64,000 bases of DNA from an uncultured delta proteobacterium. GTDB taxonomy: Bacteria; Desulfobacterota; Desulfomonilia; Desulfomonilales; Desulfomonilaceae. The notes beneath the pieces were generated by a model, which made no database searches, was not told where the DNA came from, and saw nothing but the letters and a program-made list of their open reading frames with translations. Positions 10,598 to 50,811 of the stretch are shown one piece after another. Where the stretch lies: positions 2,016,001 through 2,080,000 of the forward strand of contig CAWBKB010000001.1 in the NCBI GenBank assembly GCA_963789265.1. Reading direction: 5' to 3'. A program made the position numbers and the translations under genes. How positions within the stretch are numbered: position 1 is the stretch's first letter; each line of letters begins with the position of its first letter.

Positions 10598-12162
10598 TTA
10601 CGTTCGGGTACGAAAACGCCGGGCATCGATCCCGAACCTCTGAACGCGTAACCCCATGATTCTTTCGGAAATTCCGAGCGCCCACGCGGCTTTTGCTCTG
10701 TTCCCCCGGCAAGCCTTCAGCGCGTCTACTATCAAGTCTCGTTCTACCCGCTCCAACGTCCCCTCCAGAGTCCCCGAGTGGGCTGTTCCGCTGGCCTCGG
10801 CCGTCTGGAGCGTCGGCGGAAGATGGTGCCCGCGTATTACCTGATCCGAACTCAGGAGAACGGCCCTTTCCAAGCAGTTCTCCAACTCTCGGACGTTTCC
10901 GGGCCAGTGGTAACTCATGAGCATGTCGATGGCAGGCGTTGAAATGCGTCGGATCACCTTGTTATTGGCCTTGCTGTACCTTCTCCACAAAAAAGTCGGC
11001 CAGGAGCGGTATGTCGGTCTTGCGTTCACGCAAGGGCGGAACATGAATTGGAAAAACGTCGAGCCGGTGGTCCAGATCCTGCCGGAATCGTCCTTCCGCG
11101 ATCAACAGCTCCAAGTTCCGATTTGTGGCGGTTATGATTCGGACATTGGTCTTAATGGTCGCTGTGCCGCCCACTCGCTCGAATTCTCTTTCCTGCAATA
11201 CCCTGAGAAACTTGATCTGGGTGGTTGGAGACAAGTCTCCGATTTCGTCGAGAAAGATTGTTCCCCCGTGCGCAAGCTCAAAACGCCCTTTGCCGCGTCG
11301 CTATGGCGCCGGTAAAAGCACCTTTTTCATGCCCGAAAAGCTCGCTTTCCACAACGCTTTCCGGCAGAGCCCCACAGTTGACCTTGATGAAAGGGTTTGC
11401 GGCCCGCAAACTGTTGAAGTGGATCGCGTGAGCCACAAGCTCTTTGCCTGTGCCGCTCTCTCCCCTGATCAGGACCGTGGTATCGCTCCTCGACACTTGA
11501 GCTATCAGGTCGTAAACGGTTTGCATGCCCTTCGAGTTGCCGATGATATTGGAGGGACGAAAGCGCTCCTTGAGCTGATCTTGGAGCCGCAGATTTTCCT
11601 CAAGCAGGCGATGCCGTTCCTCCTGAGCAGATCGCCTGAGACGGACTGCCTGAGCAATCATGGAAGCTATGATGGACAAAAGCCTCACATCTTCTTCGAA
11701 AGCTACCCCGTCCTCGAATAATCGGTCCGCGCTCAATGCCCCGATCACCTCGTTTTCGAGTTTGATGGGAACGCATATAAAGGAGATATCTGCCTTGCTG
11801 AGACCTTTTCGAGCGCCGGTGCGGTCGAGGAATAAAGGTTCTATGGAAATCTGAGGCACCACTGCGGGCCGGCCGGTCTTTATCACCTTCCCCGTAACGC
11901 CTTCTCCGGGCCTGTATTTTCCTCTTTCCATCTGGCTCTCAGACAGGCCGTGAGCGGCTTCAATAAATATTTCCCCGGTCTCCCGGTTTAGGAGAGTCAG
12001 GGTGCCGCGTACCATGCCCATGTTATCGGCCATGGATTCAAGCACAGGCCCTACCACGTCTCTGAGGTCCATGCTGCGATCCAGGCTCTGACTTACTTCA
12101 AAGAGAAGTAAAAGTTCCCGAACCTCTCTTTTAATTCTTGGTTGTTGCTGGCGAGTTGCCAT
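10598..12162 (-). CDS. NifA-like sigma54-dependent activator (GAF-AAA+-HTH); frameshifts near 11293 and 10990
   Basis: GAF domain, [48 protein letters not shown]-terminal HTH. Confidence 0.9.
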
Positions 12163-32991: not shown

Positions 32992-33068
32992 GGCGGTGTA
33001 GCTCAGCAGGTTAGAGCATGCGGCTCATATCCGCAGTGTCCGGGGTTCAAGTCCCTGCACCGCCACCA
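32992..33068 (+). tRNA. tRNA-Met(CAT), elongator type; integration target
   Basis: GGCGGTG/CACCGCC acceptor stem, GCGG-CTCATAT-CCGC anticodon arm, GTTCAAG T-loop, encoded CCA. Confidence 0.93.
33039..33068 (+). repeat. Left att core (30 bp)
   Basis: TCCGGGGTTCAAGTCCCTGCACCGCCACCA, identical at 48190-48219. Confidence 0.95.
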
Positions 33069-33118
33069 CTTAACCATAGAATATAACGAGACTATCACTC
33101 CTCCCTACCCCCGAATAG

Positions 33119-33317: not shown

Positions 33318-34484
33318 TTACTGATTTGACTTTTTCAGGGGGGTGACAGTTGCTTTTCTTTGAATTGATCGAAGTGCGTTAACTTCCAGGTGGGAATATC
33401 GCTTGGTCTGCTCAAGATTGCTGTGCCCCAAAAACTTGGAGACTTTGTAAAGGGATTGGCCGTCGTTCACTGCTTGTGAGGCAATACTGTGGCGCGTGCC
33501 CTGATATAAGGTGATGTGAGCAACCCCAGCTTTTTCACGGGCTGCGTTCCATTGGTTCCTGCACCAATTCCGACCATGAGGCTTACCGGTCGAATCGCAA
33601 AAGACAAATCCCTCGGCATCCACATGGCGCGGTCTCGTCAAATAGAGTTCTTTCCAATTGGGGTCGAGAGGAACAATGCGAATTCGCTTTGACTTGGTAA
33701 ACGGCCGCAGGTCGTTATCAGCGAAGGCCCGCTGTATAGTCACTAGATCATTTTTTAAGTCGATATCGTGATGCTGAAGGGCTCGGGTCTCTCCGGGCCT
33801 CGTTCCGTGCGTAGCTGAGAAGAGGATCATAAGGTGCGCGTCAGCGGTCAGGTTCGCAAAGATAAGGTCCTGTGTCTCGACGTCCGCCCACTTCCACTCC
33901 GGGTCCGGCAGAGTACTTGCCCTGAATTCCATCGGGAACTTGGGGATTGCCTGTATAACCTCTTCCTCGTACGCATCCTTGAAGATCTTGTGAAGGGCGC
34001 TCATGATATTCCAGAGGCTTTTGGGGGAGTAATCAAGCGACAGGTAGAATTGTTTCAGGTCGCGCCCGCGGATCTCTGTAATGGGCTTCTCCTTGAAGTA
34101 GGGAAGGAATATGTTGCGCACGTAGTTCCTGAGCGAGCCCAAGTAGGTAATTGACAACTCATTCCGATCTTTGCGACGCTGGCAATTGCTCAGCCACTCT
34201 TCTGCGTAGACGGAGAAGCTGTGGAGTGATTTTTTCGTCTTGGAATAGAAGTCCGGGTCGAATGTCCCGCTTTGTATCTCGCCTGTTATTTGCGCCAGGG
34301 TATATTCGGCGTGCTCACGACTGTGAAAACTTCTGTGTTGCTTGTCGGCCCAGATCTCAATTCCGCCTGACAGACGGATTTTCCAGCGGTTGCCCCGATT
34401 CTTGTACACCTTCCCCAGAGCAGGCATTGTCCACACCTCCGGCGTTTGGGGGAAAGCATACTTTGTTTTTGACTTTGGGGGCAA
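33318..34484 (-). CDS. int: Tyrosine recombinase / phage integrase
   Basis: GTRPGE, TKSKR, YQGTRHS, LGHSN..TKRY; adjacent to the tRNA att site. Confidence 0.93.
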   Translation of the reverse strand: MPPKSKTKYAFPQTPEVWTMPALGKVYKNRGNRWKIRLSGGIEIWADKQHRSFHSREHAEYTLAQITGEIQSGTFDPDFYSKTKKSLHSFSVYAEEWLSNCQRRKDRNELSITYLGSLRNYVRNIFLPYFKEKPITEIRGRDLKQFYLSLDYSPKSLWNIMSALHKIFKDAYEEEVIQAIPKFPMEFRASTLPDPEWKWADVETQDLIFANLTADAHLMILFSATHGTRPGETRALQHHDIDLKNDLVTIQRAFADNDLRPFTKSKRIRIVPLDPNWKELYLTRPRHVDAEGFVFCDSTGKPHGRNWCRNQWNAAREKAGVAHITLYQGTRHSIASQAVNDGQSLYKVSKFLGHSNLEQTKRYSHLEVNALRSIQRKATVTPLKKSNQ

Positions 34485-35164: not shown

Positions 35165-35640
35165 GCTGACCTCGCTTCCAATCGGGATTGATGATCTCGC
35201 CAAAACCTCAACAAAATGCTCTCGCAGAGTGTTGCCGCAACTTCCTGGCTCCCAGCGAATAAGAAGGGTATGGCATATCTGTGCTGTAGCGCCACCACGG
35301 ATTCCCAGGCGCTCCTGGGGTTCATTTGGCTGCGGTAATTGCCTTGGAGTAGATCTGAATACCGGGCTTCCACGACCACATAGAAATGCAGGATGGACGC
35401 GGCCCGCTCCAATTCTCTCGTGAACCGTTCGCGGGAGACGGTTAAACAGCCGATCAAATCGTCCAGGGTTTTGCGTTCGATTGAAACCCAGCTTTGGAAG
35501 CCGTCCAGCGAATAATCGCCAGTCGGAAGGCACGTCCGGACGGTTGGCAGAGAAAAGTAATTTTCCCATGGCGCGGGGTCCGGTTCCCGCGTATCAATCA
35601 AGAAAAGCGGCAGAGGTTCGCTCTTGGCCATGCTACTCAC
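35161..35640 (-). CDS. ERCC4/XPF-domain nuclease
   Basis: IDTREP, LPTGDYS, IERKTLDDL, VVVEA. Confidence 0.85.
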   Translation of the reverse strand: MSSMAKSEPLPLFLIDTREPDPAPWENYFSLPTVRTCLPTGDYSLDGFQSWVSIERKTLDDLIGCLTVSRERFTRELERAASILHFYVVVEARYSDLLQGNYRSQMNPRSAWESVVALQHRYAIPFLFAGSQEVAATLCESILLRFWRDHQSRLEARSA

Positions 35641-38085
35641 CCCTGTGCCGACTTAAATTGAGCGCAACTGGTAGCGTCCCGTCTCTCCACTGGCTTGGGG
35701 CAACACCACTCAAGATCACACTGGCTACACGCAAGACTTTGCTTCCCGAAATTACCAGGCACCACGTTGTCCGCTTGGCCTTCGGCCCTCAGTCCTATGC
35801 CGCGCCAAACCTTGACCCGAGCGCTTGCGGGGCCTACTTTGCCCTTTATAATGCCCGCTCTGCCTAGAAGATTTTCGTTGAACGGCGCACGCTTCAAGGG
35901 CTGCTCTCGCACATCCTCACAATGTGACTGATACGCCTTGTAAAGCTCCGAAACGGGTACAGTCGCGGAGATGTGGACCACACAATGCTTGTCCAGGAAA
36001 TCGCCTAGTTTATCGGCGTCTTGCCGGTAATCAGCAACTGCCAACTTGACCTTCTCGGGAGGATTGAGGCCGCTCTGTTGCCACTGCCGAAGCCCAGTCA
36101 GCATCCAGTTTAAAATGCCAGGCGCTTCGGCCTTCAGTTTGTCACCCAGAGTGACATCCTTATCCTCTCCCTCGAATTGCCGGGTAAATGGAATAAGTTG
36201 CGGGCGCCTCCAAAACGCCTCAGACGCGTCCCGCACTTCTGGTCGATTGTTCGCGCAAATGAAGACTTTGGCTTCAGGAGTAAACTCGAAAAATTCCCTG
36301 CGCAAAAAGCGAGCAGTAACCTTACCGTCTCCAGAGACTTTCTTGATAGTTTCGGCGTCGAATCGTTTCCCCTTCGGTTCAGAGGCAGACACGAACCGAG
36401 CGCCCCGGAGTCTGGCCAGGTCATTGCGAGGCGAATCGTCGTTTCTGCGCTCCATGAATGTGGCGGCGGGCGTATCAATAGCGTAGTCCCCCAATACCGC
36501 AGAGATGGTGTTTACAAGCACGGATTTGCCGTTACTGCCTTTTCCCCAGAGAAAAAACCAACATTGTTCGGTGGTCAGCCCGGTAAGGGCGTAGCCCAAC
36601 ACCCGCTGCATATAAGCGGTTAATTCGGCGTCGCCTTCGGTAATCTCTGTGATGAATTGATCCCACCGCGGGCAAACGGCCGCTGCGTCATAGTCAACAG
36701 GCGCTACCCTCGTAATGAGATCATTTGGCGAATGTGGTCGTAACTCGCCGGAGGCAAGGTCAACGGTGCCGTTCCTCACGTTCAAGAGCAAGGGGTTAGT
36801 ATCAAACACGTCTGGGAGTACACTGATTTCCTGCTCAGACGGGAGTAGCTGAATCATGGCGTTGATCTTGGAAACGCTCTCGCACTTCCGGGCGAACTTA
36901 GTCAGAGCTTCTTGCTGGTCCTTGTCCGTCAGATTCGCCGCTTCGCCGTGAAGTCCCCTTACTACGTCCTTGGCAGCGGCCTGAACCCGTGAAAGTTGAT
37001 CCTGCGCCCATCTAGTTCCGTCATAATGGTACCATCCTCCCAACTGTCCGCAGAACTTGATTTTGCCTTGAACAGCAGCGGCCAAGCGCTCAGCGTTTCC
37101 CATGTCGCTGAGGTGGTGGGAATCAGACTTGCCCTTTTCTTGAGCCTGGCGCCGGCGCTCGGCACGAATTGCCGATACGAATTCGTACTCCGGGGTCTCT
37201 TCCGCCAAATAAAGCAACGTGTAATATGTCCCCTCGCGACCCTCCTTCTCGAGGAAATCAGAGAGGTCCCCCCCTTCGGGCAGGTTGGGCAGGTTCAGGA
37301 TTTTGACGCTTTTCGCAAATCCGTGGAGGGTATCAGCTACCGCTCGGGCGTGACTCTGACCCGGTTCGTCATTATCGGGGATGATCCATACTACGCGATC
37401 TTTGAGAGGCTCGTGAATCGCATATTTTTTGACCAGGCCCGGCCATTTACTGCCATGCCGGTCAGCGCCCTGCGGAGGCGTCGTGGCCACAAATCCGAGA
37501 GACCGGGCCGCCAGAAACATCTTTCTCTCCTTCGACTACGAGAACCGGCTTTTCCGGATCCGCGGCCAACAACTCCGGCAGCCCGAATAGGACGCGAGGG
37601 ATGCCGTTTAGATCCCAGGCCCAACCGTCCTTGCCCTTTGGGTCCGGGCGCCGCACGGGGAAATCTCCTTTTGGGTCCGTCCTGCATACCTCATAGAGCA
37701 ATTTTCCTGACTCATCGTGGTACGGGTAGGTCGCGATGATCCTGGCGTACTGCTTCCGTTTTTTCTTGGAAGTTTTTCCTTTATCCGGCTTGGGCTTCCC
37801 GGCCCCTTCAGCGATCCAATTGCAGGCGTCCAGAAATGAGCACTCTTTGGCCGCCATAACGAATCCGATGGGGGGGTAATGCGTATTGCTGGAAAAATCA
37901 TGAGCGTGGTCTTCGTAGATTTTGAGGCTTTCAGTGCTCTCTGATGGATTCTCGATGCTCTTTATAAATCCGCTCGCATTAGGCTCTTTCCCCAGGCGAC
38001 GGCATATCTCGGGCAGGGAAATCAACTTATTGTAATAGTCGGTATTGACTTTGGAGTTCGCGTCAGGTAGGCTCTGATCTGACAT
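35637..38085 (-). CDS. Toprim primase fused to a P4/D5-family SF3 helicase; +1 frameshift near 37515
   Basis: VVEGEKDV, IIPDNDEPG, GGDLSD (Toprim); LSDMGNAER, NGTVDL, GKGSNGKS (Walker A), KKVSGDG, AFWRR. Confidence 0.9.
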
Positions 38086-38331
38086 TTATGGTTCCTCATA
38101 CTGCCCCGGCCGCCAACCGGGGTTTTGTTTATTTGGTTTTCGTTTCTCGGCCTTGAACTGTTTGGCCAGTACTAGCCACTCCGGAATGCTGCCTTCTGGC
38201 CAGTAAAATCGCCCGCGGGGGCTCACAAACGGAGTCGGAAATGCTCCTTGGTCCATGAGGATCAAAAGTTGCTCCACTGTGAGGTGCAACAAATCAGCGA
38301 GACCATGCACATCAATCCCGTTTGTCATCAT
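38086..38331 (-). CDS. AlpA/excisionase-like HTH protein
   Basis: Short winged-HTH with G.FPTP and W..GSI.EW pattern, upstream of the primase. Confidence 0.65.
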   Translation of the reverse strand: MMTNGIDVHGLADLLHLTVEQLLILMDQGAFPTPFVSPRGRFYWPEGSIPEWLVLAKQFKAEKRKPNKQNPGWRPGQYEEP

Positions 38332-39583: not shown

Positions 39584-39599
39584 TGGCACACTTGTTGCT
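39584..39599 (+). promoter_or_regulatory. Sigma54 -24/-12 site in the divergent control region
   Basis: TGGCACACTTGTTGCT. Confidence 0.65.
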
Positions 39600-39827
39600 G
39601 AAGGCTGTCAACGCAGATTTTAGGCAGTAATACCTTGAAATGTTTCGAGCGCTAGCAAACAACTACCAAGTCACCTCTCCAAACCCCTGCATGGAAGCCC
39701 ATAAGTGGCACCCTGCATGAAGAAAACAACTACCAGCCATTTCGCAGCGTCCATGATGTCCAATAATCTCGCGCGGTTATAAGGCCGCGGAGTGCATCAT
39801 TTATTTGAAATCATTACCATTTTGGGC

Positions 39828-39856
39828 TTGACTCGTCGCGCGCGGAAAGATATCAT
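39828..39856 (+). promoter_or_regulatory. Sigma70 promoter
   Basis: TTGACT-N17-TATCAT. Confidence 0.6.
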
Positions 39857-40004
39857 GCCCCCCATCTGCATCCAAAATCGCAATCCCCTCCCTTGTATCA
39901 GACTGGTACTCAGGTCCTATACTATAAACCGCAAAAGCCCCCGTTGGAGACAGGAGCTCCGTCGAGGGCTGATGCCACACCTATGCGTCAAAGGAAGGTG
40001 CAGC

Positions 40005-40472
40005 ATGGCAATAATCTATCGTTTCTCGAGCCGCGAAGCAATTTCAAAAGAAGCGCGGCCCACAACGCCATACGTTCCCCCTTGGGAGCAATACTCGCCC
40101 GTACGAAGGGTTATTTTGCCAGACTTTTTCTATCCGGATGTTGAGGTTGTTCGCCGGCAAGATTCTGGGTGCAAACTTGACTACAAAGGTTTCTACTTCC
40201 GATTGATAGTCTGTAAAAAGCCCGGAGAGAGCATCAGAGCGTTTTGCAAGAGAACTGGATATAGCAAGTCAGCGTTCTATCATTTGAGGCAAAATCCAAG
40301 TTCAGTTGCTTCAAACAGGCGTGTAAATCCAAAACTGGCCGACAACCTGGGGGTCGATCCAGGCTGGCTCGAATTGGGGTTGGATTTTGGCCCGCTGCGC
40401 GAGCGAGGTAAATGGCCGCACGTTGAACTGGCGCAAACCGCCGTACCCTCAAAAGTTCGATCCCTGCAATAA
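40005..40472 (+). CDS. HTH-containing putative regulator (paralog 1)
   Basis: AAGGAAGG RBS; SIRAFCKRTGYSKSAFYHL ... LADNLGVDPGWL (XRE-like). Confidence 0.6.
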   Translation: MAIIYRFSSREAISKEARPTTPYVPPWEQYSPVRRVILPDFFYPDVEVVRRQDSGCKLDYKGFYFRLIVCKKPGESIRAFCKRTGYSKSAFYHLRQNPSSVASNRRVNPKLADNLGVDPGWLELGLDFGPLRERGKWPHVELAQTAVPSKVRSLQ

Positions 40473-41092: not shown

Positions 41093-41419
41093 CTACAGAG
41101 AGAGCACACAGAGGTCGTTGTTCTTGGGCCGGGGCTTCACGGTACGCTTAATCTCCGCTTCCATTCGATCCTCTGCCATGTCCAGGTCGTACCGCGCCTG
41201 TGCGTTCAACCAAAACTGCGGAGTGGTCCTGAAATACCGCCCCAGCCGCATGGCCGTGTCTGCCGTGACGCTGCACTTGCCGTTGAGAATACGATTTACG
41301 GTTGAAACACTAATCCTCAGAGCTTCGGCAAGCTTGTGCTGAGTCAAGCCCAAAGGGTCCATGAATAGTTCCTTTAGTGTCTCGCCCGGGTGAATAGGCG
41401 GTAATTTTCTCGTTTTCAT
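41093..41419 (-). CDS. higA: HigA-family antitoxin
   Basis: PPIHPGE.L, TADTAMRL.RYF.TTPQFWLNAQ.RYDL. Confidence 0.92.
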   Translation of the reverse strand: MKTRKLPPIHPGETLKELFMDPLGLTQHKLAEALRISVSTVNRILNGKCSVTADTAMRLGRYFRTTPQFWLNAQARYDLDMAEDRMEAEIKRTVKPRPKNNDLCVLSL

Positions 41420-41461
41420 AATGTTTTTTCCTATAGATTCTATAATATATTTGTTTCATAC

Positions 41462-41740
41462 TCAGTGATAATCGACCAGTTCTAGATCGTGAATGTATCC
41501 ATCCTTCCAAGCGAAGCACAATCGCCAGTTGCCACTGACCCGTAAGCTATGCTGACCCCTCCGCTGCCCCTTCAATGCCTCCAGCCCCCCACCGGGAATA
41601 GCGGCCAAGTCTTCCAGGCGCACAGCATCTTGCATCGCTCCAAGCAACAGCCTAAGTCTCCTGTGAAGGTGCTCAGGACTCCTTGAATGCTTCCGGTTAG
41701 ACAGCTTCTCCAGTTCCTTGTCTGCAACGCTCTTAATCAT
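41462..41740 (-). CDS. higB: HigB (RelE/ParE-family) toxin, probably leaderless
   Basis: MIKS..DK, LEALKG.R.GQHSLRV..NWRLCF.W, VDYH; TTGCAT-N17-TATGAT ends 6 nt before the ATG. Confidence 0.9.
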   Translation of the reverse strand: MIKSVADKELEKLSNRKHSRSPEHLHRRLRLLLGAMQDAVRLEDLAAIPGGGLEALKGQRRGQHSLRVSGNWRLCFAWKDGYIHDLELVDYH

Positions 41741-41806
41741 GTATATATCATATTGCGCAACGCGGGACAATGCAAGTTCAAAAATGAAAGACATCCAATC
41801 GGCAGG

Positions 41807-42043
41807 CTACCACCCCTTATTCCACCACGGCCCGATCTGCCAGAACGATGTAACCCCTTCTCTGCGGTTGAAAACGGGGAATCCGGCCGCCCGGAGTGCT
41901 TCCAGGTCCCGGTAAATCGTTCGGTATTTTGCCTCGAGTACCCGACAGAGTTCTTCCACCTGGCAACCCGATGGATTTGCCGACAGGTAGCGGACCAGCT
42001 TCCACTGACGAATTAGTGATGTGTTTGGGTGGTCTTTTGCCAT
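41807..42043 (-). CDS. Stand-alone winged-HTH of the WYL-regulator N-terminal type
   Basis: ELC..LE...RTIYRDLEAL.AAGFPV; no WYL domain follows. Confidence 0.7.
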   Translation of the reverse strand: MAKDHPNTSLIRQWKLVRYLSANPSGCQVEELCRVLEAKYRTIYRDLEALRAAGFPVFNRREGVTSFWQIGPWWNKGW

Positions 42044-42057
42044 GGTACGATAGGCAG

Positions 42058-42567
42058 TTAATTATCGTGTTGCGTCTCGCTTGCTTGCTTCCCCTGGAAG
42101 TCGAGAATCCAATCCGTGAGTTTTGAGCGGTCTACCAATTCGCAGCCGTTCGATTGCGCCAGGGTTCGGGCTCCCTTTGTGAAAAGGCTGTTCGTCACAA
42201 CCTGCGCCTCGCTGCATTTATAGTAGGTCTTTCCTGCTACCGCGTCCGATATTGCCCTTCGACTCACCGATTTACCGTGACGCTTGCATTGAATCGCAGT
42301 TCTGGTGCCGTTCGATACTGCTATGAGGTCAACGCCAAGGTCACCGCTGTCAGGCGTAAATTGTACCCGCTTCCCCTGATGCTGGAGCAAACGTGCAACG
42401 TAATTCTCAAACTCGCGCCCGCTCATGAGATCGACCCTGGAAATGTCCAGAGCCCTTATCCTTCGCTCTATCCTCCGCCGTTGCTTCACGCCCCTCCAAA
42501 CGCCCCAGGCGACCACGAGTACTATGCCGAGTAAGAAGAGAAGAGTCAATAAGCTGCTGTCGTCCAT
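42058..42567 (-). CDS. Membrane-anchored Mrr-family restriction endonuclease
   Basis: N-terminal TM; MSGREFE, GDLGVDL, IQCKR, VTNS.FT..A..LA. Confidence 0.85.
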   Translation of the reverse strand: MDDSSLLTLLFLLGIVLVVAWGVWRGVKQRRRIERRIRALDISRVDLMSGREFENYVARLLQHQGKRVQFTPDSGDLGVDLIAVSNGTRTAIQCKRHGKSVSRRAISDAVAGKTYYKCSEAQVVTNSLFTKGARTLAQSNGCELVDRSKLTDWILDFQGKQASETQHDN

Positions 42568-42640
42568 CTGAGCCCCCCTGAATAAAGTTACGACTCCGCG
42601 CGAACGCAATCAAGAGAAATCTGTGTCGCCTCAACTGCCT

Positions 42641-42950
42641 TCACAGGACCCGCGTGGTTGCGATTTCAGGCGAGAGATAGGGATTGATGCCCGGAGAGCC
42701 TGAACCTCGCTGAGATTTGACTACACGGAGCCAGTGGCGCACCTTCTTGGCTACCTTCTGTTCACTGAACATGCAGAGAAGAATTAGACCGTCCAGGGTG
42801 AAGTACCGTTCGCGAGTCGGAGGACGATGTACATCATGTGTAGGCGATACGCCTATTCGAGTGGAATTATAGTCGAATCCGGCCCGTATCAGCCAGGATG
42901 TTTATTTGGGTGCAATCATTGTCGAATTCGTCCTTATGGGTTTTGAGCCC
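42641..42950 (-). pseudogene. Degenerate Bro-N/antirepressor-like fragment
   Basis: HKDEFDNDCTQ in one frame, RYFTLDGLILLCMFSEQKVAKKVRHWL in the next; no start found. Confidence 0.5.
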
Positions 42951-43051
42951 AGCCGCAACGAGAAACGACCGGGCTCTTGCCCTGGCTCGGAAGGGTTTGA
43001 CCAGGGCGCCCAGGCCGCCGAAAACTACTTGGAAAACGGCGGCCTATCGAG

Positions 43052-43121
43052 TTATCCACAACCCTCCGGGGGACCGAGAAGTTATCCACAGGTTACTTCC
43101 GGGAGGGAAAAGTTATCAACA
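43052..43121 (+). promoter_or_regulatory. Three phased DnaA boxes
   Basis: TTATCCACA at 43052 and 43082; TTATCAACA at 43113. Confidence 0.75.
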
Positions 43122-43158
43122 GCCCCTGCCTCCGCAGGAGGTGCGAAAAAATTACGCA

Positions 43159-44175
43159 TCATGAGTACGAAACCTCCGTGGGATCATTGGTGGAGACGAT
43201 TTTGGGGGCGTTGTAGGCAGCATAACGAAGAAAATAATTGGCGAGTCGATCCCGAACCGCTTGAAAAAATTCTGAGATGTCGATCTTGGGTTTTTCTTGG
43301 ATTATGTGCCGCGTTCCTTGCAAGAGTCCTGCTGCCCCATTCACCACAAACTGTGTCTCGCCTGCTGTCAAAATGATGCAGTTGTTATCAGCGTCCAGGA
43401 TGATCGAGGGGCCAATATCCTGATTCTCTTTTGCGGACAGGATCATGACCCGTCCCTTGTCATCTTGCGCCCATCTGTAGATTCCTTGCCCGTTGAGATC
43501 AACCTCGCCAGTGATCGCGACTCCGCCGGCGATCAGTTCAGAGGGCTTCCAGGAGGTTCCTGCCATAACGGATTTAACGCCTCGAACCTCGCCTTTGCGG
43601 TACTTGCTCTCGTCGTTCTTTTGCTCCTGCTGGTCTTCCGTTTGGCCGGGCGCCACCGAAAAATGTCCTGCCCCTGTCCAATCCAGCAATGCTAGAGTTT
43701 CTGCTTTGCCGTTGTCATCCATCAGGAGGGTATGGCCGGCCTCGCTCTTCAGGAGTCTTATGCGAGTACCCTGGCGCACATCATTATCGCTGTAGACCTT
43801 AGCTTCCGCGGGAATCATCTCCGATTTGTCATCCTTAGAAGCGTTCCACGCAGAGAACGGGAAGACAATCGGGCTCGCATAATAGTCACCGCCAGGGAAG
43901 GCCACAGTAACGAGTTCCTTCGGGACAGGGCACCACCACATTCCCATGTCGCCATTACCGGCCGAACCGCCCATCGGCAACCAGGACATTTCGCACCAGT
44001 TCGACCAATTCCTGTAGTCTCCGTCTTCGAGCAGGCTTCGGATCTCAACTCGGACGCGACCTTTTCGTAACGGGTCTTTCAGGTCCTTGACGACTCCCAC
44101 GTGGCAACTTGCACCTTGGAGAATGTGGTGCGCCTCGCGCGGAATCGGGATTTTATTTTGTCGGGGGTCCGTCAT
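43159..44175 (-). CDS. Phage baseplate spike protein (gpV/Gp5 OB-fold, VgrG-like)
   Basis: GVV...DP..KGRVRV, WC, GMWW.P...E.V.VAF.GGD...PIV, followed by beta repeats KSEAGHTLLMDD. Confidence 0.8.
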   Translation of the reverse strand: MTDPRQNKIPIPREAHHILQGASCHVGVVKDLKDPLRKGRVRVEIRSLLEDGDYRNWSNWCEMSWLPMGGSAGNGDMGMWWCPVPKELVTVAFPGGDYYASPIVFPFSAWNASKDDKSEMIPAEAKVYSDNDVRQGTRIRLLKSEAGHTLLMDDNGKAETLALLDWTGAGHFSVAPGQTEDQQEQKNDESKYRKGEVRGVKSVMAGTSWKPSELIAGGVAITGEVDLNGQGIYRWAQDDKGRVMILSAKENQDIGPSIILDADNNCIILTAGETQFVVNGAAGLLQGTRHIIQEKPKIDISEFFQAVRDRLANYFLRYAAYNAPKIVSTNDPTEVSYS

Positions 44176-44272: not shown

Positions 44273-44650
44273 TTAAAATTCCAAAGTTTCGACTGGTTGT
44301 CCTACGTCGGTTGCGTGTGTAATCGCCATGCCATGTTTGACCTGACCATCGGCAACCGGAAAAACGGCATTCCCAGCGCCAAAACAGAAGGGGCCGACTG
44401 GTACGGCAGCGCCACTAACCCTCGTGCGCCTCAACACGAAGCTTGATACCACCACGCATGTTTCGGGATCTAAGCAGCCGTAATTGCTGGCTGAATGCCG
44501 TGAAATCACTTCACCGACAACATTTGCACTCCCCTGGCTAGAAATCGGTTGCACCGACATGTCGCCGATGATTTCAACGATGTCTCCTGCCTGAGTCTCT
44601 GGCGTGCATGTGAACATGTCAGACAGCGGTTCACCTGCGACTTTATTCAT
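44273..44650 (-). CDS. Putative capsid decoration/cement protein (DUF2190-like)
   Basis: 125 aa, beta-rich: AGDIVEI, VVGEV, GAAVPVG, GMAITHATDVGQPVE. Confidence 0.45.
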   Translation of the reverse strand: MNKVAGEPLSDMFTCTPETQAGDIVEIIGDMSVQPISSQGSANVVGEVISRHSASNYGCLDPETCVVVSSFVLRRTRVSGAAVPVGPFCFGAGNAVFPVADGQVKHGMAITHATDVGQPVETLEF

Positions 44651-44858
44651 TTTGCCCCCCGATCTTGACCCATCCTTTTGTAGCCAACTTTTGCACCGCC
44701 TCTCGAATGTCTTCCTCCATGAGCCTATCAGCAGCATCCTTCTTTCGGTTTGCCATCTCAAGTTCCGTATCCCGCGGGCCCGCTCCGTCTGTGCAGTGCT
44801 CGAAGCTGAACACCGTTTCGCCGTCGATCACTTCAGCATGTGGTATTGTCGCATTCAT
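44643..44858 (-). CDS. Hypothetical protein
   Basis: Translationally coupled within the operon. Confidence 0.5.
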   Translation of the reverse strand: MNATIPHAEVIDGETVFSFEHCTDGAGPRDTELEMANRKKDAADRLMEEDIREAVQKLATKGWVKIGGQNE

Positions 44859-45011
44859 CGGTTGTTTCTCCTCGCCTTGGCCACGTTCCGATAGTAGGTA
44901 CGGCGCTCTTCCAGCAGATCCACGTCCTGACAGGTCTCAATGTGGCGTCTGGTCCTTAATCTCTTCACGGCTGAGCTTCAACTGAACATTAACGCTGTCA
45001 GCTTTGAGCAT
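44855..45011 (-). CDS. Small hypothetical protein (extra base near 44950)
   Basis: Overlaps both neighbours; reads MLKADSVNVQL...ERRTYYRNVAKARRNNR when corrected. Confidence 0.4.
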
Positions 45012-45805
45012 CAGGCAACCTCGGCTTTGGCCAGCGCCGCCTCAGCCCGCGGAAGGTATGCTCTTATGGCGGCCCGGACCATGCACTCATCTTCATCCGC
45101 TCCACTCGGTAGCCGCGTGCTCAGACCCCATGGCATCGACCATGTGTAACGGGTTATCTCCCCCTTGCTCCTGTCAAGCTCACCGCCGAGCGGCCGTAAG
45201 GTGTCACCGGCTTTACGTTTGGATAGAAAACCCATCACGGCCGTCTCTAAATGTTTTTCCAGACAACCGCCCAGGTCGCGGAGTCGTTCCAAATCATTCA
45301 TATACACATTAAGATGGAATCCGACCCGGCGACCGGAAAACATCGGCCGAATGTGGCCGCAATGAGCTTTGGCATACTTTTTGACAGCGGCCCTCATGAA
45401 AAATGCCCTCTCGTCCGGCTGAACCGGCAAAAACTCGTCTGCCAAGTCGCTGGGGACAACCCAGATGTAATTCGTGCACTGCTCAGACGCCCGGAAATTA
45501 GGCACGTTCAGCTTACCCTCAGTGAACACCGACTCGGGGCTCTTCGGCTGGTAATCTCTCACAGCGGCCCAGAAATGGTCCGACAGAGGATCGTCTAGTT
45601 CCCTGAACTTCTCGAAATAGCTGTTTTCGTACGCGACCATAATCCTGGTCAGACCCGGCACCCGAGGCGGCTCTACCGGCTCCGGCAACTGCGCCGCATA
45701 GAATGATACCGCTTTCTCAGCCGCATCCACAATGTGGCCCGTGGCCGCCAACCTCCGGTAATCTTCGTCCGAAACTCGTAATACCAAACCCAAATCGTGC
45801 GCCAT
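45011..45805 (-). CDS. Hypothetical protein with ~5 tandem ribbon-helix-helix-like units
   Basis: AGGAGG RBS; repeated beta-helix-helix units ending AV/AI..Y/F. Confidence 0.6.
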   Translation of the reverse strand: MAHDLGLVLRVSDEDYRRLAATGHIVDAAEKAVSFYAAQLPEPVEPPRVPGLTRIMVAYENSYFEKFRELDDPLSDHFWAAVRDYQPKSPESVFTEGKLNVPNFRASEQCTNYIWVVPSDLADEFLPVQPDERAFFMRAAVKKYAKAHCGHIRPMFSGRRVGFHLNVYMNDLERLRDLGGCLEKHLETAVMGFLSKRKAGDTLRPLGGELDRSKGEITRYTWSMPWGLSTRLPSGADEDECMVRAAIRAYLPRAEAALAKAEVA

Positions 45806-46102
45806 AAAGCCTCCTGAAAAAACCCAATAATGGTTGACTGCTCATTATCAAAGACTCGCTCGATGTCAAGGAAAATTAACCGCGCAAGTTAATCCAGTTT
45901 AATACGTTTAATGAGTTAAGAGAAAAAATATCAAAAACGGCATATACGGGGGAGAGATTGCCCTAAAATCGCCGACCCCGGGGGGGGGCCTTTTCAGACA
46001 TAGGGGGGGGTATACTTGTGGTACCATCGCGCCACGCTTGGTGTTTCAGTGCGGGGTGAGCTTGTGCGGTGAAACTTCTATCGTGCTCTGGTCTGTTGTA
46101 GA

Positions 46103-46420
46103 TCAACTCTCGTCGTCGTCGTCCAGCGCTGCCTTCGCTACGAACGCGTCAATCCTTTTGATCAACGGCTCCCAGCTTTGCGGCATGTATCCGTCCAAAC
46201 ACGCCATGATCATGAGGTTTATTCCCTCGGTTATAGCCTCCCGAGCTTCAACGAGAAGGGAAATTGCATCGTCGGTGCCTTCCCCGAGATATCCATCAAG
46301 GGCCTTTTGGCGGTTGGCGGGTAACTGAGCAACCAGCTTTTTCAATTCGATCATTGCCGGGTGCTTCGAGATGTCTCCGGGCTTTTTGCGAACGTTGGTT
46401 CCATCGTTTGCATTTTTCAT
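46103..46420 (-). CDS. Hypothetical protein
   Basis: ATGA overlap with the serine recombinase; GGAGG RBS. Confidence 0.6.
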   Translation of the reverse strand: MKNANDGTNVRKKPGDISKHPAMIELKKLVAQLPANRQKALDGYLGEGTDDAISLLVEAREAITEGINLMIMACLDGYMPQSWEPLIKRIDAFVAKAALDDDDES

Positions 46421-47121
46421 GCGGCCCTCCTGTAAATCTTGGCAACCAGGACATCCGACCATACAGCGCCAGTCCGGGTCTGATAACCTTCCTGGTTCAA
46501 TTCCCGCGCTATCGCCCTGAATCCATGTCCATCTGCTTTGAGCTCGTGAATACGTGCAATGATCTTCTGCTCGGTAGGCTCCGGGACCAATACTTTGAGC
46601 GGTCGATCTTTGCCGGCCTGAACCTTTTCTTCAACCCCGAATCCAAAAGGAACATGACCGCCTGTCTTCTCGTTCCGCTCTTGCTTGTCTTTCATGATGG
46701 CCAGGGTGCGCTCACTCGTCACGTCACGTTCGAACTGAGCAAAGGCGCTCATCATACTGAAAAACAACTTACCTGCGGCACTGGTAGTGTCGATGGACTC
46801 GCTGACACTGATGAAGTCCCGGCCCAGCTTGTTCAACTTCTCAGCCGTTGCAATAGAATCCTGAGTCGAACGGAAAGCTCGGTCTAGTTTGAACACGATC
46901 AGACCGGCAACTTTGCCACTGTAAACCTCATCTAGGCAGGCTTTGAATCCGTGGCGTAGGTGGATACTCTTAGCGGATACACCGTCGTCGTAATAGATGC
47001 AGTTCAGTTCGAGGCCCTTGGCCTGAGCATAGGCTGAGATTCGCTCGCCCTGCATTTTCAAGGACAAGCCGTCTTTGGCCTGCTTCGCGCTGCTCACCCG
47101 AACATAACCGTTGACTTTCAT
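46417..47121 (-). CDS. Serine recombinase (resolvase family with recombinase-domain C-terminus)
   Basis: YVRVSS, DDGVSA, FKLDRAFR, DTTSAAG, AQFER...ERT, GGHVPFGF. Confidence 0.92.
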   Translation of the reverse strand: MKVNGYVRVSSAKQAKDGLSLKMQGERISAYAQAKGLELNCIYYDDGVSAKSIHLRHGFKACLDEVYSGKVAGLIVFKLDRAFRSTQDSIATAEKLNKLGRDFISVSESIDTTSAAGKLFFSMMSAFAQFERDVTSERTLAIMKDKQERNEKTGGHVPFGFGVEEKVQAGKDRPLKVLVPEPTEQKIIARIHELKADGHGFRAIARELNQEGYQTRTGAVWSDVLVAKIYRRAA

Positions 47122-47159
47122 AATCCATCCTCCCTTTTCTTTCGTCTACCCCTCTATAC

Positions 47160-47175
47160 TGCACATTCCATGCCA
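47160..47175 (-). promoter_or_regulatory. Sigma54 promoter upstream of the serine recombinase
   Basis: TGGCATGGAATGTGCA, ~40 bp before the ATG. Confidence 0.65.
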
Positions 47176-47454
47176 CTCTTCGCCCCGCGAGGCCACAATA
47201 TACAGCCTCCAAAGCGGCCCGTCGCGCAGATATGGTATGGTAAATCTCCTCGGGCCTGCTACAATGCGGAAATAATGCCGTGAGTGTCCGAAAAGTAAGG
47301 CAGAGTGTAGCTTATTGGGATCGCCCGACTTTTGGGGCAGTGTTTGAGCATAAAAAGCCCATTAACAGCCACTTTGGGTATTTAAAACCGCTCCATGAGA
47401 GGCCCAGGAAGGCGAGACCGCGTACTTTGCCAGGATCGGAGCAACCCTAGATGT

Positions 47455-47619
47455 TGGCACGAAGATTGCTTCTTATTATATGGCACGGTAATTGCTAAGA
47501 CATGGACCCGCAAGAGTGGCCCGGGCCTTGCATTATTAGCAGGTAGTATGCCATGAGACTATTTTGGCACGTGGCTAGAATTCTGTGACTAATTCCCTCT
47601 AAATGGCCCGCTTCCTGCA
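47455..47619. promoter_or_regulatory. Array of sigma54 -24/-12 motifs (5 matching, 1 partial)
   Basis: 47455 TGGCACGAAGATTGCT; 47481 TGGCACGGTAATTGCT; 47517 TGGCCCGGGCCTTGCA; 47538-47553 (minus) TGGCATACTACCTGCT; 47565 TGGCACGTGGCTAGAA (partial); 47604 TGGCCCGCTTCCTGCA. Confidence 0.8.
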
Positions 47620-47972
47620 TGTATTCCACGATAACACACCGCTTCTCACAATCGCTGATCTGAAACTCCGAGTAAACTAGGTGCATATACACCATATTTG
47701 CATCGAAATTAGAGCGCTGACATGGCAATGCTGGAGAGGCTTTGACCAGGTGGTCATCGGTAACAGCAGGCTCAGTGAGGAGTTAGAGAGGTTCCCAAAC
47801 TGGCCCGAGCGGTCAGTTTTCCGTGTTTCGCAAGAATCGCAATGGAAGTATGCATTGACGCATGGACCGGACAAGAAAACCGCGGGATTCCGCGGAGGCG
47901 TGGACGTGAGGAACCGGCAATCGCCACACTCTGAAAGTTTCTATAAACCTACTTCTTCAATGAAATCAATTA

Positions 47973-48071
47973 GTGGACCGTTTTTTATAAAAGTGGACCG
48001 TTTGTGGACCACTTTGCATTTTTATAAGTCTCTGGAATCAGGATATATGGACCGAGTGCACCGAGTGGACC
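47973..48071 (-). repeat. Right GGTCCAC iteron-like array (6 copies, inverted relative to the left array)
   Basis: GTGGACC at 47973, 47993, 48004, 48065; ATGGACC at 48047; GTGCACC at 48056. Confidence 0.85.
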
Positions 48072-48189
48072 GTTTTTTTATTCCTAACATAAAGTAAAAA
48101 AGCATAAGAAAAGGGGTTGTGTGCAGGTTGTGTGCAGGCGGGTATGGTGGTCAGTAAGTTGTAGTAATAACAGGGTTATTTGGTAGGCT

Positions 48190-48219
48190 TCCGGGGTTCA
48201 AGTCCCTGCACCGCCACCA
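48190..48219 (+). repeat. Right att core (duplicated tRNA-Met 3' end)
   Basis: Identical to 33039-33068. Confidence 0.95.
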
Positions 48220-48500
48220 GCTAACCTGGCACTACCATTGCGGATTCCTTGTGCACTAAGAATCTTCGGTGTACCGCCGATCACTCCCAAAGCATCGTTC
48301 AAAGGCTGTACAAGGCAATTTCGCTAATATTCCATTCCTGAGTGCAGTGTCTTATATCGGGTGATGTTGCGTGCGCTTGCAGTCCTGCCCGCATTACACC
48401 TCATCGGGTATTTTCAAGTAGAAGCGCGGGATGGCTAAAGCGCCAGGCAACCGGCCCTTGAACAATCATCCAAAACAGCGTATAAAAATATGTTCGGGAC

Positions 48501-49082
48501 ATGAGAATAATTGCGGGCCGTTTCAAAGGATTGCGACTGCCTTCGCCCAAGAAAAAGGGGGTGCGCCCGACTACCGACCGAGTGCGGGAGGCATTGTTCA
48601 GCACCCTGGGCCCCGATGTCACAGATTCCCGCGTGCTCGACCTTTTCGCCGGGACAGGCGCTTTTGGCTTTGAAGCCCTCAGCCGCGGCGCAGCTTCAGT
48701 GGTGTTCGTGGACAGCGATCGCCAGGTAGCCCGCACCTTATCAAGGACGTGCCACGGTCTGGGAGTGGTAGACCAAGTCCGGATTCTGACCATGTCCGCC
48801 GAACAGGCCGTCAAAAGGCTCTCAGGGTCCGAAGAAAGATTCGAAATCATTTTTCTCGATCCCCCGTACGGGGAGCAATTGATTCCAGAGATGGTTTATA
48901 ATCCGATCTTTGCGAGCCTGTTCGAACGCAACGGCCTCCTGATCGTTGAAAGAGAAGAGAGGGCTTCGGAACTTGCTGTGCCCACAAGGTTCGAGAAGGA
49001 GTTCAATCGAAAATACGGTAGCACGATTATCGAAATATTTCGGTATAACATGAGCGATGTTTCAACCTTTCCATTGAGGTAG
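48501..49082 (+). CDS. rsmD: 16S rRNA m2G966 methyltransferase
   Basis: MRIIAG, RPTTDRVREALF, LDLFAGTG..G.EALSRGA, FLDPPY. Confidence 0.93.
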   Translation: MRIIAGRFKGLRLPSPKKKGVRPTTDRVREALFSTLGPDVTDSRVLDLFAGTGAFGFEALSRGAASVVFVDSDRQVARTLSRTCHGLGVVDQVRILTMSAEQAVKRLSGSEERFEIIFLDPPYGEQLIPEMVYNPIFASLFERNGLLIVEREERASELAVPTRFEKEFNRKYGSTIIEIFRYNMSDVSTFPLR

Positions 49083-49094
49083 GGAATAGAGGGT

Positions 49095-49643
49095 ATGGGA
49101 GAAAAAATTGCTGTTTATCCGGGAACTTTTGACCCGTTTCATAACGGGCATCTGGAAATCATCCGCCGCGCTCTGGGCACGTTTGACCGCATAATCGTCG
49201 CGCTCGGCCTTAATCCTGAGAAGGAAACCATATTCACGCTGGAGGAGCGTTTGGACATGATCCGATGCAGCGTGGACGGCGACCCTAGAATAGAATGCGA
49301 TGCCTTCGACGGCCTTCTTGTGCGATATGCCGAGAGGAAAAACGCCCACGCGATTATTCGTGGACTCAGGGCGGTTTCTGACTTTGAGTATGAGTTTCAG
49401 CTTGCCTTGATGAATCGTAAACTTAGCCGGCGCATCGAAACGTTCTTTCTTATGACCGCACATCGCTATCTCTACGTGAGTTCGAGGATTATCAAAATGA
49501 CGGTAATGGCCGGTGGCTCGCCGGAAGGGTTGGTCCCCGATTACGTCTTCCAGGTCTTGAAGAAGAAGTTTCCGGCAATCGGAGAAGGCGACGATCCATT
49601 GAATTCCGACCTCCGGAGCAAAGATGAAGACGATGTTATCTGA
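49095..49643 (+). CDS. coaD: Phosphopantetheine adenylyltransferase
   Basis: YPGTFDP.HNGH, RGLRAVSDFEYE. Confidence 0.95.
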   Translation: MGEKIAVYPGTFDPFHNGHLEIIRRALGTFDRIIVALGLNPEKETIFTLEERLDMIRCSVDGDPRIECDAFDGLLVRYAERKNAHAIIRGLRAVSDFEYEFQLALMNRKLSRRIETFFLMTAHRYLYVSSRIIKMTVMAGGSPEGLVPDYVFQVLKKKFPAIGEGDDPLNSDLRSKDEDDVI

Positions 49644-50811
49644 AAGAGCAACCCAACTGAAGCCGTCCGCCACCTTGGCTATCTCCGCGAAGGCAAAGGA
49701 ACTTAAGAGCCAGGGAGTGGATGTTGTAGGTTTCGGAGCGGGTGAACCGGATTTTCCGACCCCTTCGCATATCAGAGAAGCGGCCAAGAGATCGTTGGAC
49801 CGCGGGGAGACATTTTACACGCCCGTCAGCGGTATAGTTGAACTGAAAAAAGCAGTGGTCCGCAGGTTTGCGGCAGACTACGACCTGGAATATTCCCCGG
49901 AAAATATCGTGGTTTCCTGCGGAGCCAAGCACAGCTTGTACAACATCTTCCAAGCCGTCATTCAGCCCGGTGACGAGGTGCTGGTCTTTGCGCCGTACTG
50001 GGTTTCTTATCCCGAGATGATAGCCCTCGCCGGCGGCACTCCTGTGATCGTTGCCACTGAAGAGCAGAATGGCTTTGTGCCTGAGGCCGTGGAGATAGAA
50101 TCTCGGATAACTTCATCGACCAAGGCAATACTGATCAATTCTCCGTCCAATCCCACGGGGGTAATCTATCCCGGACATTTGTTGGAAAAAGTGGGAGAAC
50201 TTGCGGAAAAACACGATCTGCTCGTCATTTCAGACGAGATCTACGACAAACTGGTCTACGACGACCGAGCTTTTAGACCTTTCGCCTCGTTACCCGGAAT
50301 GAAGGATCGCACCATTCTGGTGAACGGAGTCTCGAAAACTTATGCCATGACCGGATTGCGCATAGGCTATTTGGCTTCCAAGCGAGCCGAACTGGTCAAA
50401 GCGGCCACCAGCATCCAGAGCCAGTCCACATCCAACCCGAACAATACGGCACAGGCTGCGGCCGTGGAGGCGCTGACCGGACCGCAGGACGAGGTCGAAC
50501 GAATGCGCGGGATCTTCGAACGGCGCAGAAACATGATGGCGGACGAAATAGAGAAGATTCCTCAGCTCTCCGCCTTCAAACCGGAAGGTGCATTCTACTT
50601 TTTCGTGAATGTTTCGAAACTGTGCGGGAAGAGGGGTATGTCGAACTCGGCGGACATCGCAAGTTATTTGCTGGAGCGTCACCACGTGGCTTGCGTTCCG
50701 GGAGGGCCGTTCGGATCTGAAGATCATATCCGCCTCTCCTTTGCAGCCGGCGAGGAAGTGATGCTCAGGGGGTTGGAACGTATTCGCACGGCCTGCGACG
50801 AGCTGACATGA
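49624..50811 (+). CDS. PLP-dependent aspartate aminotransferase (class I)
   Basis: GAGEPDF, NSPSNPTG, SDEIY, SKTYAMTGLRIG. Confidence 0.92.
   Translation: MKTMLSERATQLKPSATLAISAKAKELKSQGVDVVGFGAGEPDFPTPSHIREAAKRSLDRGETFYTPVSGIVELKKAVVRRFAADYDLEYSPENIVVSCGAKHSLYNIFQAVIQPGDEVLVFAPYWVSYPEMIALAGGTPVIVATEEQNGFVPEAVEIESRITSSTKAILINSPSNPTGVIYPGHLLEKVGELAEKHDLLVISDEIYDKLVYDDRAFRPFASLPGMKDRTILVNGVSKTYAMTGLRIGYLASKRAELVKAATSIQSQSTSNPNNTAQAAAVEALTGPQDEVERMRGIFERRRNMMADEIEKIPQLSAFKPEGAFYFFVNVSKLCGKRGMSNSADIASYLLERHHVACVPGGPFGSEDHIRLSFAAGEEVMLRGLERIRTACDELT

Follow-up and report, generated by a model that had tools for sequence, protein, structure and literature searches.

In the genome of an uncultured delta proteobacterium of the family Desulfomonilaceae (GenBank assembly GCA_963789265.1), a 165-bp stretch of non-coding DNA at positions 47455–47619 carries five full sites of the sigma-54 promoter type. 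All positions refer to the window, i.e., the whole 64,000-nt stretch of DNA that was analyzed (contig CAWBKB010000001.1, forward-strand positions 2,016,001–2,080,000). The stretch lies near the right end of a 15,151-bp island integrated at a tRNA-Met gene, and it is very probably a selected array of sigma-54 sites, in a class that is typical of phages and mobile elements. Our favored, still tentative reading is that the array would serve as an activator-dependent bank of tandem sigma-54 promoters firing to the right. Sigma-54 promoters are textbook single sites for stress, nitrogen and motility genes, and to our knowledge, with which a literature search agrees, phages are not known to depend on such sites. 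Stacked sites are very rare in the sampled cellular genomes (1 of 401) and frequent among viral contigs (at least 121 loci vs. 7 for a control pattern), and the array looks like an unrecognized way for mobile elements to engage the host sigma-54 machinery. If this is true, how phages and satellites use or neutralize a form of polymerase that is unable to start alone becomes a concrete question.

Sigma-54 promoters have a −24/−12 consensus, of which an extended form is also known. Sites 1 (47455–47470, plus strand, TGGCACGAAGATTGCT) and 2 (47481–47496, plus, TGGCACGGTAATTGCT) match the consensus perfectly; site 3 (47517–47532, plus, TGGCCCGGGCCTTGCA), the inverted site 4 (47538–47553, minus, TGGCATACTACCTGCT) and the last full site (47604–47619, plus, TGGCCCGCTTCCTGCA) are near-perfect, and a partial site (47565–47580, plus) reads TGGCAC and then gtggcTAGAA, without the −12 GC. 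The start-to-start spacings are 26, 36, 21, 27 and 39 nt, the 21-nt step being that of the face-to-face pair of sites 3 and 4. In the five full sites GG and GC are exactly 10 nt apart within a TGGCAC-N5-TTGCW framework; both half-sites and the exact N5 spacing are constant while the inner 5 nt vary, and the flanks fit the extended consensus (TGG is preceded by T or G, and TGGCMC is followed by G in four of the five sites). A pattern covering all five sites, TGGC[AC][CT]-N5-[CT]TGC[AT] on both strands, has 100 matches in the 6,061,876-bp genome, five of them in the array, and its strict form TGGCAC-N5-TTGCW has 33. No other pair of pattern matches lies <200 bp apart anywhere in the genome, which makes the array the sole cluster. 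With 0.0027 matches expected per 165 bp, the probability of five or more is 1.2×10−15 (Poisson; ~5×10−11 to 6×10−9 after correction for the genome). The window as a whole holds 9 matches, compared with 0.65 ± 0.81 in dinucleotide-preserving shuffles, none of 100 of which reached 9. Chance is not an explanation for the array. Reading of the letters and pattern scans thus bear out what an earlier note on this DNA had claimed from the letters alone, namely five full sites and one partial site in 165 bp, two perfect and one inverted, together with two further sites in the island, which we find at 39584–39599 (plus) and 47161–47175 (minus). Contigs of two public DNA runs compared with the array yielded near-identical fragments only and no variant; those that match 47499–47649 save one letter give no independent support, because the run from which they come may be the source sample.

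A congeneric genome, G026, shares the interval 44650–48140 of the window and nothing else of the island, and is the only one to do so among 69 other genomes of the family. Its module has inserted at another tRNA end and encodes a recombinase of 236 aa with 71% protein identity to that of the genome under study. At the place of the array G026 has four plus-strand sites with spacings of 26, 67 and 25 nt. Sites 1, 2 and the last site can be aligned between the two genomes, whereas the interior cannot, and it is thus evident that the number, place and direction of the sites are kept while the intervening sequence drifts. The last site and ~80 nt after it are orthologous, and the distance from the last site to the next conserved block is 31–33 nt in both genomes. 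Because the congeneric island end keeps its four sites, the array sites appear to be under selection. Across both elements, eight of the nine full sites point right (P = 0.039, two-sided binomial test); the power of this test is low, since three of the four G026 sites have orthologues in the genome under study and hence are not independent.

To place the array among similar ones, we define a class of three or more sites with gaps of ≤34 nt in non-coding phage or mobile-element DNA. The array belongs to it, as sites 1–3 fit the triple pattern, the stretch is non-coding and lies in a mobile island, and it shows the close packing and a face-to-face pair. With an intermediate triple pattern, the genome under study is the sole match among 401 genomes of the phylum, with no control matches; in 69 related genomes only four tandem pairs were found outside the element family, about the rate of the reversed control (8 real vs. 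7 control matches). In a collection of viral contigs, a stringent pattern (TGGCAY-N5-TTGCW three times) gives at least 121 loci vs. 7 for a slightly looser reversed control, which is at least 17-fold rarer than the real pattern. Among the loci listed, the viral arrays have 3–10 sites each; 78 of the 121 use one strand and 43 are mixed, and many of the mixed ones consist of face-to-face pairs or alternate with steps of 26 and 21 nt. Same-strand spacings in these arrays peak at 25–29 nt (178 of 303). The positions that the pattern does not impose also follow a trend: among 527 unique viral sites, T or C precedes TGG in 83%, G or A follows TGGCAY in 99%, and the next base is a purine in 77%. The host's own sites show the same trend, and the extended consensus reportedly goes back to a compilation by Barrios and colleagues in 1999.

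Five near-complete phage genomes (55–94 kb) have one array locus each, in which 27 of their 28 stringent sites are found. Flanking DNA was obtained for 80 of the 121 listed loci, and 14 of these, a convenience sample because they were picked for long flanks, were annotated with PHROGs. A terminase gene lies within ~1.5 kb in 8 of the 14, and the loci L240 and L267 share the order array, open reading frame (ORF), endolysin, ORF, TerL. A terminase neighborhood is typical and not defining, because only 8 of the 14 viral loci have it; in the island, no terminase family matched among the ORFs scanned. Among the 80 flanked loci, 23 are ≤500 nt from a contig end, which may be a genome terminus or an assembly break at repeats. 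In two cases (L275/L281 and L304/L305) a single contig has an array within ~500 nt of each of its ends, which suggests either terminal repeats containing the array or assembly breaks. A G/C run (e.g., GGGGGNGGGG) is found ≤150 nt from 49 of the 121 listed arrays (L228–L348), usually on the upstream side, and is also present at a tandem pair in a cellular genome (G068, L224); it may serve as an activator site or belong to a cohesive end.

A relaxed three-site scan with one genome per species gave at least 120 loci, mostly coding tandem repeats and including some in Actinomycetota. Clear non-coding arrays among the matches listed are L150, L181/L219 and L201/L218, all in phage or mobile DNA, and L182 and L194 have three sites each. 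One locus is a Sphingobacteriales prophage with three sites 29 nt apart, followed by a 169-aa ORF and TerL, plus one divergent site; another, in Saprospiraceae, has five tandem sites. In a metagenome-assembled genome of Desulfovibrionaceae (L218, G463:C235, 4150–4450), about seven units ~41 nt apart form face-to-face pairs with a palindromic −12 core TTGCTATAGCAA, symmetric in the motif positions and not in the inner 5 nt; this array lies between a module of integrase, GIY-YIG and AAA_25 helicase genes and 1.2 kb without an ORF of ≥90 aa. All four cellular genomes with arrays in mobile DNA (the three above and G026) possess rpoN. TerL relatives in cultured phages share 36–44% identity, and the three of these phages that were inspected, BcepC6B, VA-RY-3 and MEP301, have no arrays; BLASTN with two of the arrays as queries gave no match in 50,697 phage records.

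On its left side the array faces an operon that reads in the opposite direction (45011–47121, minus), the order of which is kept in G026. It comprises a serine recombinase (46417–47121, minus, 234 aa; Pfam Resolvase, E = 1.8×10−34), ORF119 (46103–46462, minus) and ORF264 (45011–45805, minus), and no function for the latter two was obtained from PADLOC, PHROGs, Pfam or a protein atlas. Ahead of the operon lies its predicted sigma-54 promoter (47161–47175, minus, TGGCATGGAATGTGC), ~40 nt from the recombinase ATG at 47121; transcription is predicted to start ~28 nt before the ATG, a position deduced from the site. This single site is identical in G026, falls within the most conserved 30-nt windows (83–93% identity) and, unlike the array, has a gene behind it. 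Between it and the array is a conserved non-coding spacer of ~280 bp (47176–47454). The non-coding interval 47133–47469 shows 74% nucleotide identity to G026, compared with ~67% over a span that is mostly recombinase gene, and the spacer is therefore better kept than the recombinase-dominated span. Its conservation is in blocks, the ORFs that it contains are in different frames in the two genomes, and the z-score of its RNA fold is +1.0. It probably holds an enhancer with activator and IHF sites and possibly includes the recombinase's own site. A single leftward promoter and its operon, the conserved spacer, and four to five sites that point right make up a divergent sigma-54 control region, of which the array is, going by the sequence, the outward half.

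To the right of the last site, a conserved non-coding leader extends over 47620–47940 (plus). Its conservation comes in blocks, at 47652–47678 (TCGCTGATCTGAAACTCCGAGTAAACT), at a perfect palindrome TGACCA-N2-TGGTCA (47743–47756) that is conserved in G026, and then at the integrase arm sites farther right. It had been stated that no convincing ORF lies downstream of the array, and the sole ORF there (47681–48097) indeed bears no sign of protein selection. It begins at the aligned position of a 47-codon ORF in G026 and the frames diverge further on; a coding reading was rejected, as nucleotide differences are spread evenly over the codon positions (27/24/27) and the G026 relative stops after 47 codons. 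A structured RNA was likewise rejected, as the fold of the leader is no more stable than that of shuffled sequences on either strand (z-scores −0.6 and +0.2). A search of the downstream region against Rfam gave nothing at the gathering threshold and, at an E-value threshold, only tRNA-like echoes of attR. A consensus scan, the only evidence for it, indicates a terminator-like hairpin at 47880–47895 (minus, CCGCGGAATCCCGCGG and then a T run) that faces transcription from the host side and is poorly conserved in G026. An 18-nt form of the palindrome, with one mismatch allowed, has 30 matches in 23 of 70 genomes of the family vs. 2 for the control, and no further island homology was found at the eight loci fetched. 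Because it is widespread without further island homology, the palindrome may be an operator common in the family.

Under the favored reading, several sigma-54 holoenzymes would sit on the array as silent closed complexes, and the array spacings of 26–39 bp match the 25–29-bp packing of the phage arrays. The activator would have to act in trans, because the island encodes none (none among the ORFs scanned), and might be supplied by the host or by a helper phage. An enhancer in the spacer would serve the whole control region, with the site at 47161–47175 firing left into the recombinase operon and the active bank firing right from ~47630 into the conserved leader; the transcript would then extend to the arm sites of the integrase and to attR (or, once the island is an excised circle, attP). 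By analogy with phage P4, the nearest parallel, in which the late activator of the helper switches on the late promoters, we read the island copy as a candidate helper- or signal-responsive promoter bank of late type. The direction bias of the sites (8 of 9), the conserved register of the last site, the divergent layout and the position of phage arrays by late or packaging operons all argue for this.

A number of results weigh against it. With no coding gene, stable fold or Rfam family downstream, the supposed transcript has no known job, and it would exit the island or, in the excised circle, be antisense to the integrase gene. At a spacing of 26 nt the start of one site lies on the next, so that simultaneous firing of all sites is impossible. 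Mixed orientations occur in 43 of the 121 listed viral arrays, and among the one-strand arrays examined 10 of 27 face an ORF on the opposite strand, as far as crude ORF calls can tell. Neither an activator domain nor a sigma-54 gene is found in any of the five near-complete array-bearing phages. By 10-mer sharing with 246 other sites, neither an upstream activator motif nor any repeated or palindromic motif in the spacer is common to this region and the remaining sigma-54 promoters of the genome. Homologues of the island end are also scarce, with G026 alone among 70 genomes of the family or order. In metagenomes, three close relatives of the recombinase (74–79% identity) among 80 loci listed lack sites, and the DNA upstream of them is unrelated; the array therefore tracks this island end and not the recombinase. 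Farther afield, among 401 genomes of the phylum there are five recombinase relatives (39–44% identity), none with an array; the recombinase has no match in the viral contigs; an 18-mer of the spacer has four matches, all unrelated; two patterns from the arm and promoter sequences have no matches; and two leader blocks have none in the viral collection, nor does the leader resemble the fetched viral loci.

The lack of a downstream product fits a reading in which occupancy by the sigma-54 holoenzyme, and not RNA, is selected. The earlier note had proposed the array as a possible RNA-polymerase decoy; its description of densely set sigma-54 sites, in a satellite-like island and next to a right att site, stands, and the decoy role is retained here as a rival that we consider possible, though doubtful. 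In such a sponge, hundreds of copies of a 3–10-site array on a replicating island or phage would titrate the holoenzyme and dampen host sigma-54 operons, for which the note names the amt-glnK loci of the window as possible examples, or the sigma-54-dependent late locus of a helper. The island has its own replication genes, and the phage arrays are at a single locus (27 of 28 sites in five genomes) in phages without an activator or sigma-54 gene. The 43 mixed arrays among the 121 listed, many with face-to-face palindromic pairs that are symmetric in the motif positions only, fit mere binding, as does the spacing of 25–29 nt, which amounts to dense packing in which sites 26 nt apart block each other's starts. 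However, eight of the nine sites in the island pair are co-oriented and 78 of the 121 listed viral arrays use one strand; the last site keeps its register with the leader; and the divergent promoter layout and the phage arrays that precede late or packaging operons also speak against a sponge. Its capacity would be ~2–3 holoenzymes per copy, because sites 26 bp apart cannot all hold one, and an integrated single copy, with 5 of ~100 sites in the genome, would do little.

Holoenzyme that is bound without an obvious transcript is known from orphan and intragenic sigma-54 sites mapped by chromatin immunoprecipitation in Escherichia coli and Salmonella, as far as the accessible text of the two reports goes (PMC4591121, PMC3844500), and that of the first describes holoenzyme on promoters as transcriptionally inactive, in line with a sponge (PMC4591121). 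These sites differ from the array in being single, scattered and chromosomal; in the accessible portions of the two papers they are not described as arrays or as a feature of mobile elements, and tandem, closely spaced or multiple sites, phage, prophage and titration are not mentioned in the former (PMC4591121, PMC3844500). According to the available text of the latter, secondary sites close to a promoter might accelerate the search for it, or repress or activate a neighboring promoter; this amounts to an intermediate view, in which such sites would guide the polymerase to the adjoining promoter or modulate it (PMC3844500).

The sharper form of the decoy, to which we give a still smaller chance, is that the arrays are a widespread and undescribed device by which phages and satellites capture the host sigma-54 polymerase at one locus without an activator of their own. 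The phage array would then act as a switch or hub by the packaging or late operon, while the island copy would compete with the array of a helper for limiting holoenzyme or for the activating factor, so that the island array might be a means of interference or eavesdropping at the DNA level. In this island a single-site promoter with a gene adjoins a multi-site bank without one, which makes promoter output and polymerase capture separable by experiment.

The position of the array between the host flank and the promoter and enhancer of the recombinase raises the alternative, in our view an unlikely one, of a roadblock or insulator. Stacked closed complexes and the hairpin at 47880–47895 would halt host transcription crossing attR, so that the tightly silent recombinase operon and the att arm stay undisturbed. 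The plus-strand orientation of the sites is head-on to incoming minus-strand transcription, the terminator-like hairpin is on the minus strand, and minus-strand ORFs are listed in the host flank at 48401–48850 and 49062–49787. However, these ORFs are doubtful, as they have no Pfam family and rsmD and coaD lie there on the plus strand; the hairpin is poorly conserved in G026; proteins bound to DNA are usually displaced by elongating polymerases; and a roadblock leaves the phage arrays by terminase genes unexplained.

About equally improbable is a role in cis, in which the array would be part of a pac or cos site or of an origin region, with sigma-54 or its holoenzyme as an architectural factor, and in which the terminase-less island would carry a mimic for the terminase of a helper. 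The single locus per phage genome, the terminase near 8 of the 14 loci, the 23 of 80 arrays at ≤500 nt from a contig end with two contigs that have arrays at both ends, and the G/C tract within 150 nt of 49 of the 121 listed arrays are all compatible with such a site, and the island, which has no terminase match, keeps a conserved non-coding region past the array. The contig ends may nevertheless be assembly breaks at repeats, the island leader is dissimilar to the fetched viral loci and to the viral collection, and a pattern count indicates no resident phage with an array in the genome; we are also aware of no case in which sigma-54 acts as a packaging factor. Binding sites of another protein (iterons, operators or integrase arm sites) that resemble the consensus are most improbable, since, although iterons typically take the form of short-repeat arrays in non-coding mobile DNA and sites 3 and 4 are face-to-face, both half-sites and the exact N5 are kept while the inner 5 nt vary, the unimposed positions follow the extended sigma-54 consensus with a reversed control at least 17-fold rarer, the arm repeats are different motifs found on both arms while the array motif is not beside attL, and rpoN is present in all four cellular genomes with arrays in mobile DNA.

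Among known systems, ordinary sigma-54 promoters, including divergent pairs with a common activator region, share with the array the bipartite sequence, the spacing, the layout and a spacer of enhancer length, but have one site where 4–5 are stacked here with no gene behind them. In phage P4 the late promoters Psid and PLL are activated by P2 Ogr and P4 delta; they are sigma-70 promoters, single and ahead of known genes. The island is likewise of satellite type, its promoters are akin to late or packaging promoters of phages and the activator is not self-encoded, whereas its sites are of the sigma-54 type, multiple and directed into non-coding DNA, and no helper phage was found. The early promoters A1–A3 of T7 are in tandem, and in lambda the entire late operon is run from one promoter, pR′, which precedes lysis and terminase genes. 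Like the arrays, the T7 promoters stack several host-polymerase promoters at one locus, and pR′ is one locus upstream of lysis and packaging genes in the manner of the array, endolysin and TerL at L240 and L267; they differ in being sigma-70 promoters that need no ATP-dependent activator, whereas the arrays have up to 10 sites, often on alternating strands, in phages without an activator gene. For the decoy concept, in which a nucleic acid withholds polymerase or its activator from promoters, the parallels are 6S RNA, which sequesters the sigma-70 holoenzyme, and multicopy plasmids with the nifH promoter, which inhibit nif expression as a laboratory artefact; a search for a paper on the latter found none. 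6S is an RNA that targets the sigma-70 holoenzyme, whereas here DNA and sigma-54 would be involved, and we know of no natural DNA decoy for sigma-54. A search for published arrays of sigma-54 sites in phages or for a natural sigma-54 decoy found none, mostly outside subscription journals, so an earlier description is possible.

The island is bounded by a 37-nt direct repeat (33039–33075 vs. 48190–48226, 95% identical), which is the 3′ end of the tRNA-Met gene (32992–33075, plus; ARAGORN and Rfam). The copy within the gene is attL, and the one at 48190–48226 (plus) is attR, so the right att site assumed in the earlier note is real. From the left, the island encodes a tyrosine integrase (33318–34484, minus; Pfam Phage_integrase, E = 2.3×10−18) and a replication and excision module (35637–38331, minus) with a D5-type helicase (35637–37520, minus; Pfam D5_N, E = 1.5×10−34), a primase-like ORF (37462–38085, minus; PHROG primase/helicase, E = 5.8×10−8) and a small Xis/AlpA-like ORF (38086–38331, minus; a weak PHROG excisionase match, E = 0.0025). 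No capsid, terminase or sigma-54 activator families were matched among the island ORFs scanned, and PF00158 is absent from 26 ORFs (22 within the island and 4 just outside). The term satellite-like is fair, because integrase, Xis-like and primase/helicase genes are present without a capsid or terminase match, and in this the island resembles the satellite phage P4. There is no second copy of the island in the genome. The single site at 39584–39599 (plus, TGGCACACTTGTTGCT) lies ~190 nt upstream of an ORF (39792–40472) with a weak XRE-like lead only. The island also holds helix-turn-helix (HTH) regulators. Its cargo at 41093–44175 (minus) includes a HigB-like toxin with an HTH antitoxin (a HigB/HigA pair), a small HTH_11 protein, an Mrr-type nuclease whose N terminus has a membrane-like segment, and a protein of 338 aa that bears an OB spike domain of the gpV/VgrG type.

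Near attR, two kinds of repeats, AGTGGACCG (47972–48078, plus, 3–4 copies) and GTTGTGTGCA (48116–48137, plus, two copies), are mirrored near attL, where 33199–33319 matches 47959–48078 in inverted orientation. We take both as putative integrase arm sites, and their blocks are 83–97% conserved in G026. The array motif does not occur beside attL, the nearest loose match there being at 34180 (minus), inside the integrase gene. On the host side, one base past the attR repeat, begins another good sigma-54-type site, TGGCACTACCATTGCG (48227–48242, plus); an rsmD-like methyltransferase gene and a coaD-like gene (Pfam) follow ~270 nt downstream of it. G026 has no counterpart of this site, and before the insertion its position would have been directly after tRNA-Met. 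The island end and attR together (48146–48215, plus) are compatible with a fold that resembles the acceptor and T arm of a tRNA, and Rfam gives mascRNA-menRNA at 19.9 bits (E = 0.1) and tmRNA-end at 19.5 bits, both far below gathering.

The host is well equipped with sigma-54 machinery, as it has rpoN (PF04552, E = 2.2×10−60) and 43 matches to PF00158, 37 of which have E ≤ 10−59, i.e., ~40 activator genes. At 11043–11547 (minus; G000:C1:2027043-2027547 in genome coordinates) a PF00158 frame is broken by in-frame TGA and TAG codons and may be a broken activator gene; sigma-54 sites at 4604, 6826 and 10450 are near it. Outside the window, at G000:C1:2466929 (minus), lies a single site whose 16-mer is that of array site 1. 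The DNA ~100 nt upstream of it holds a long perfect palindrome, CATGTCAGGATT...AATCCTGACATG, and the locus looks like an ordinary promoter with an enhancer ahead of a small secreted-looking ORF.

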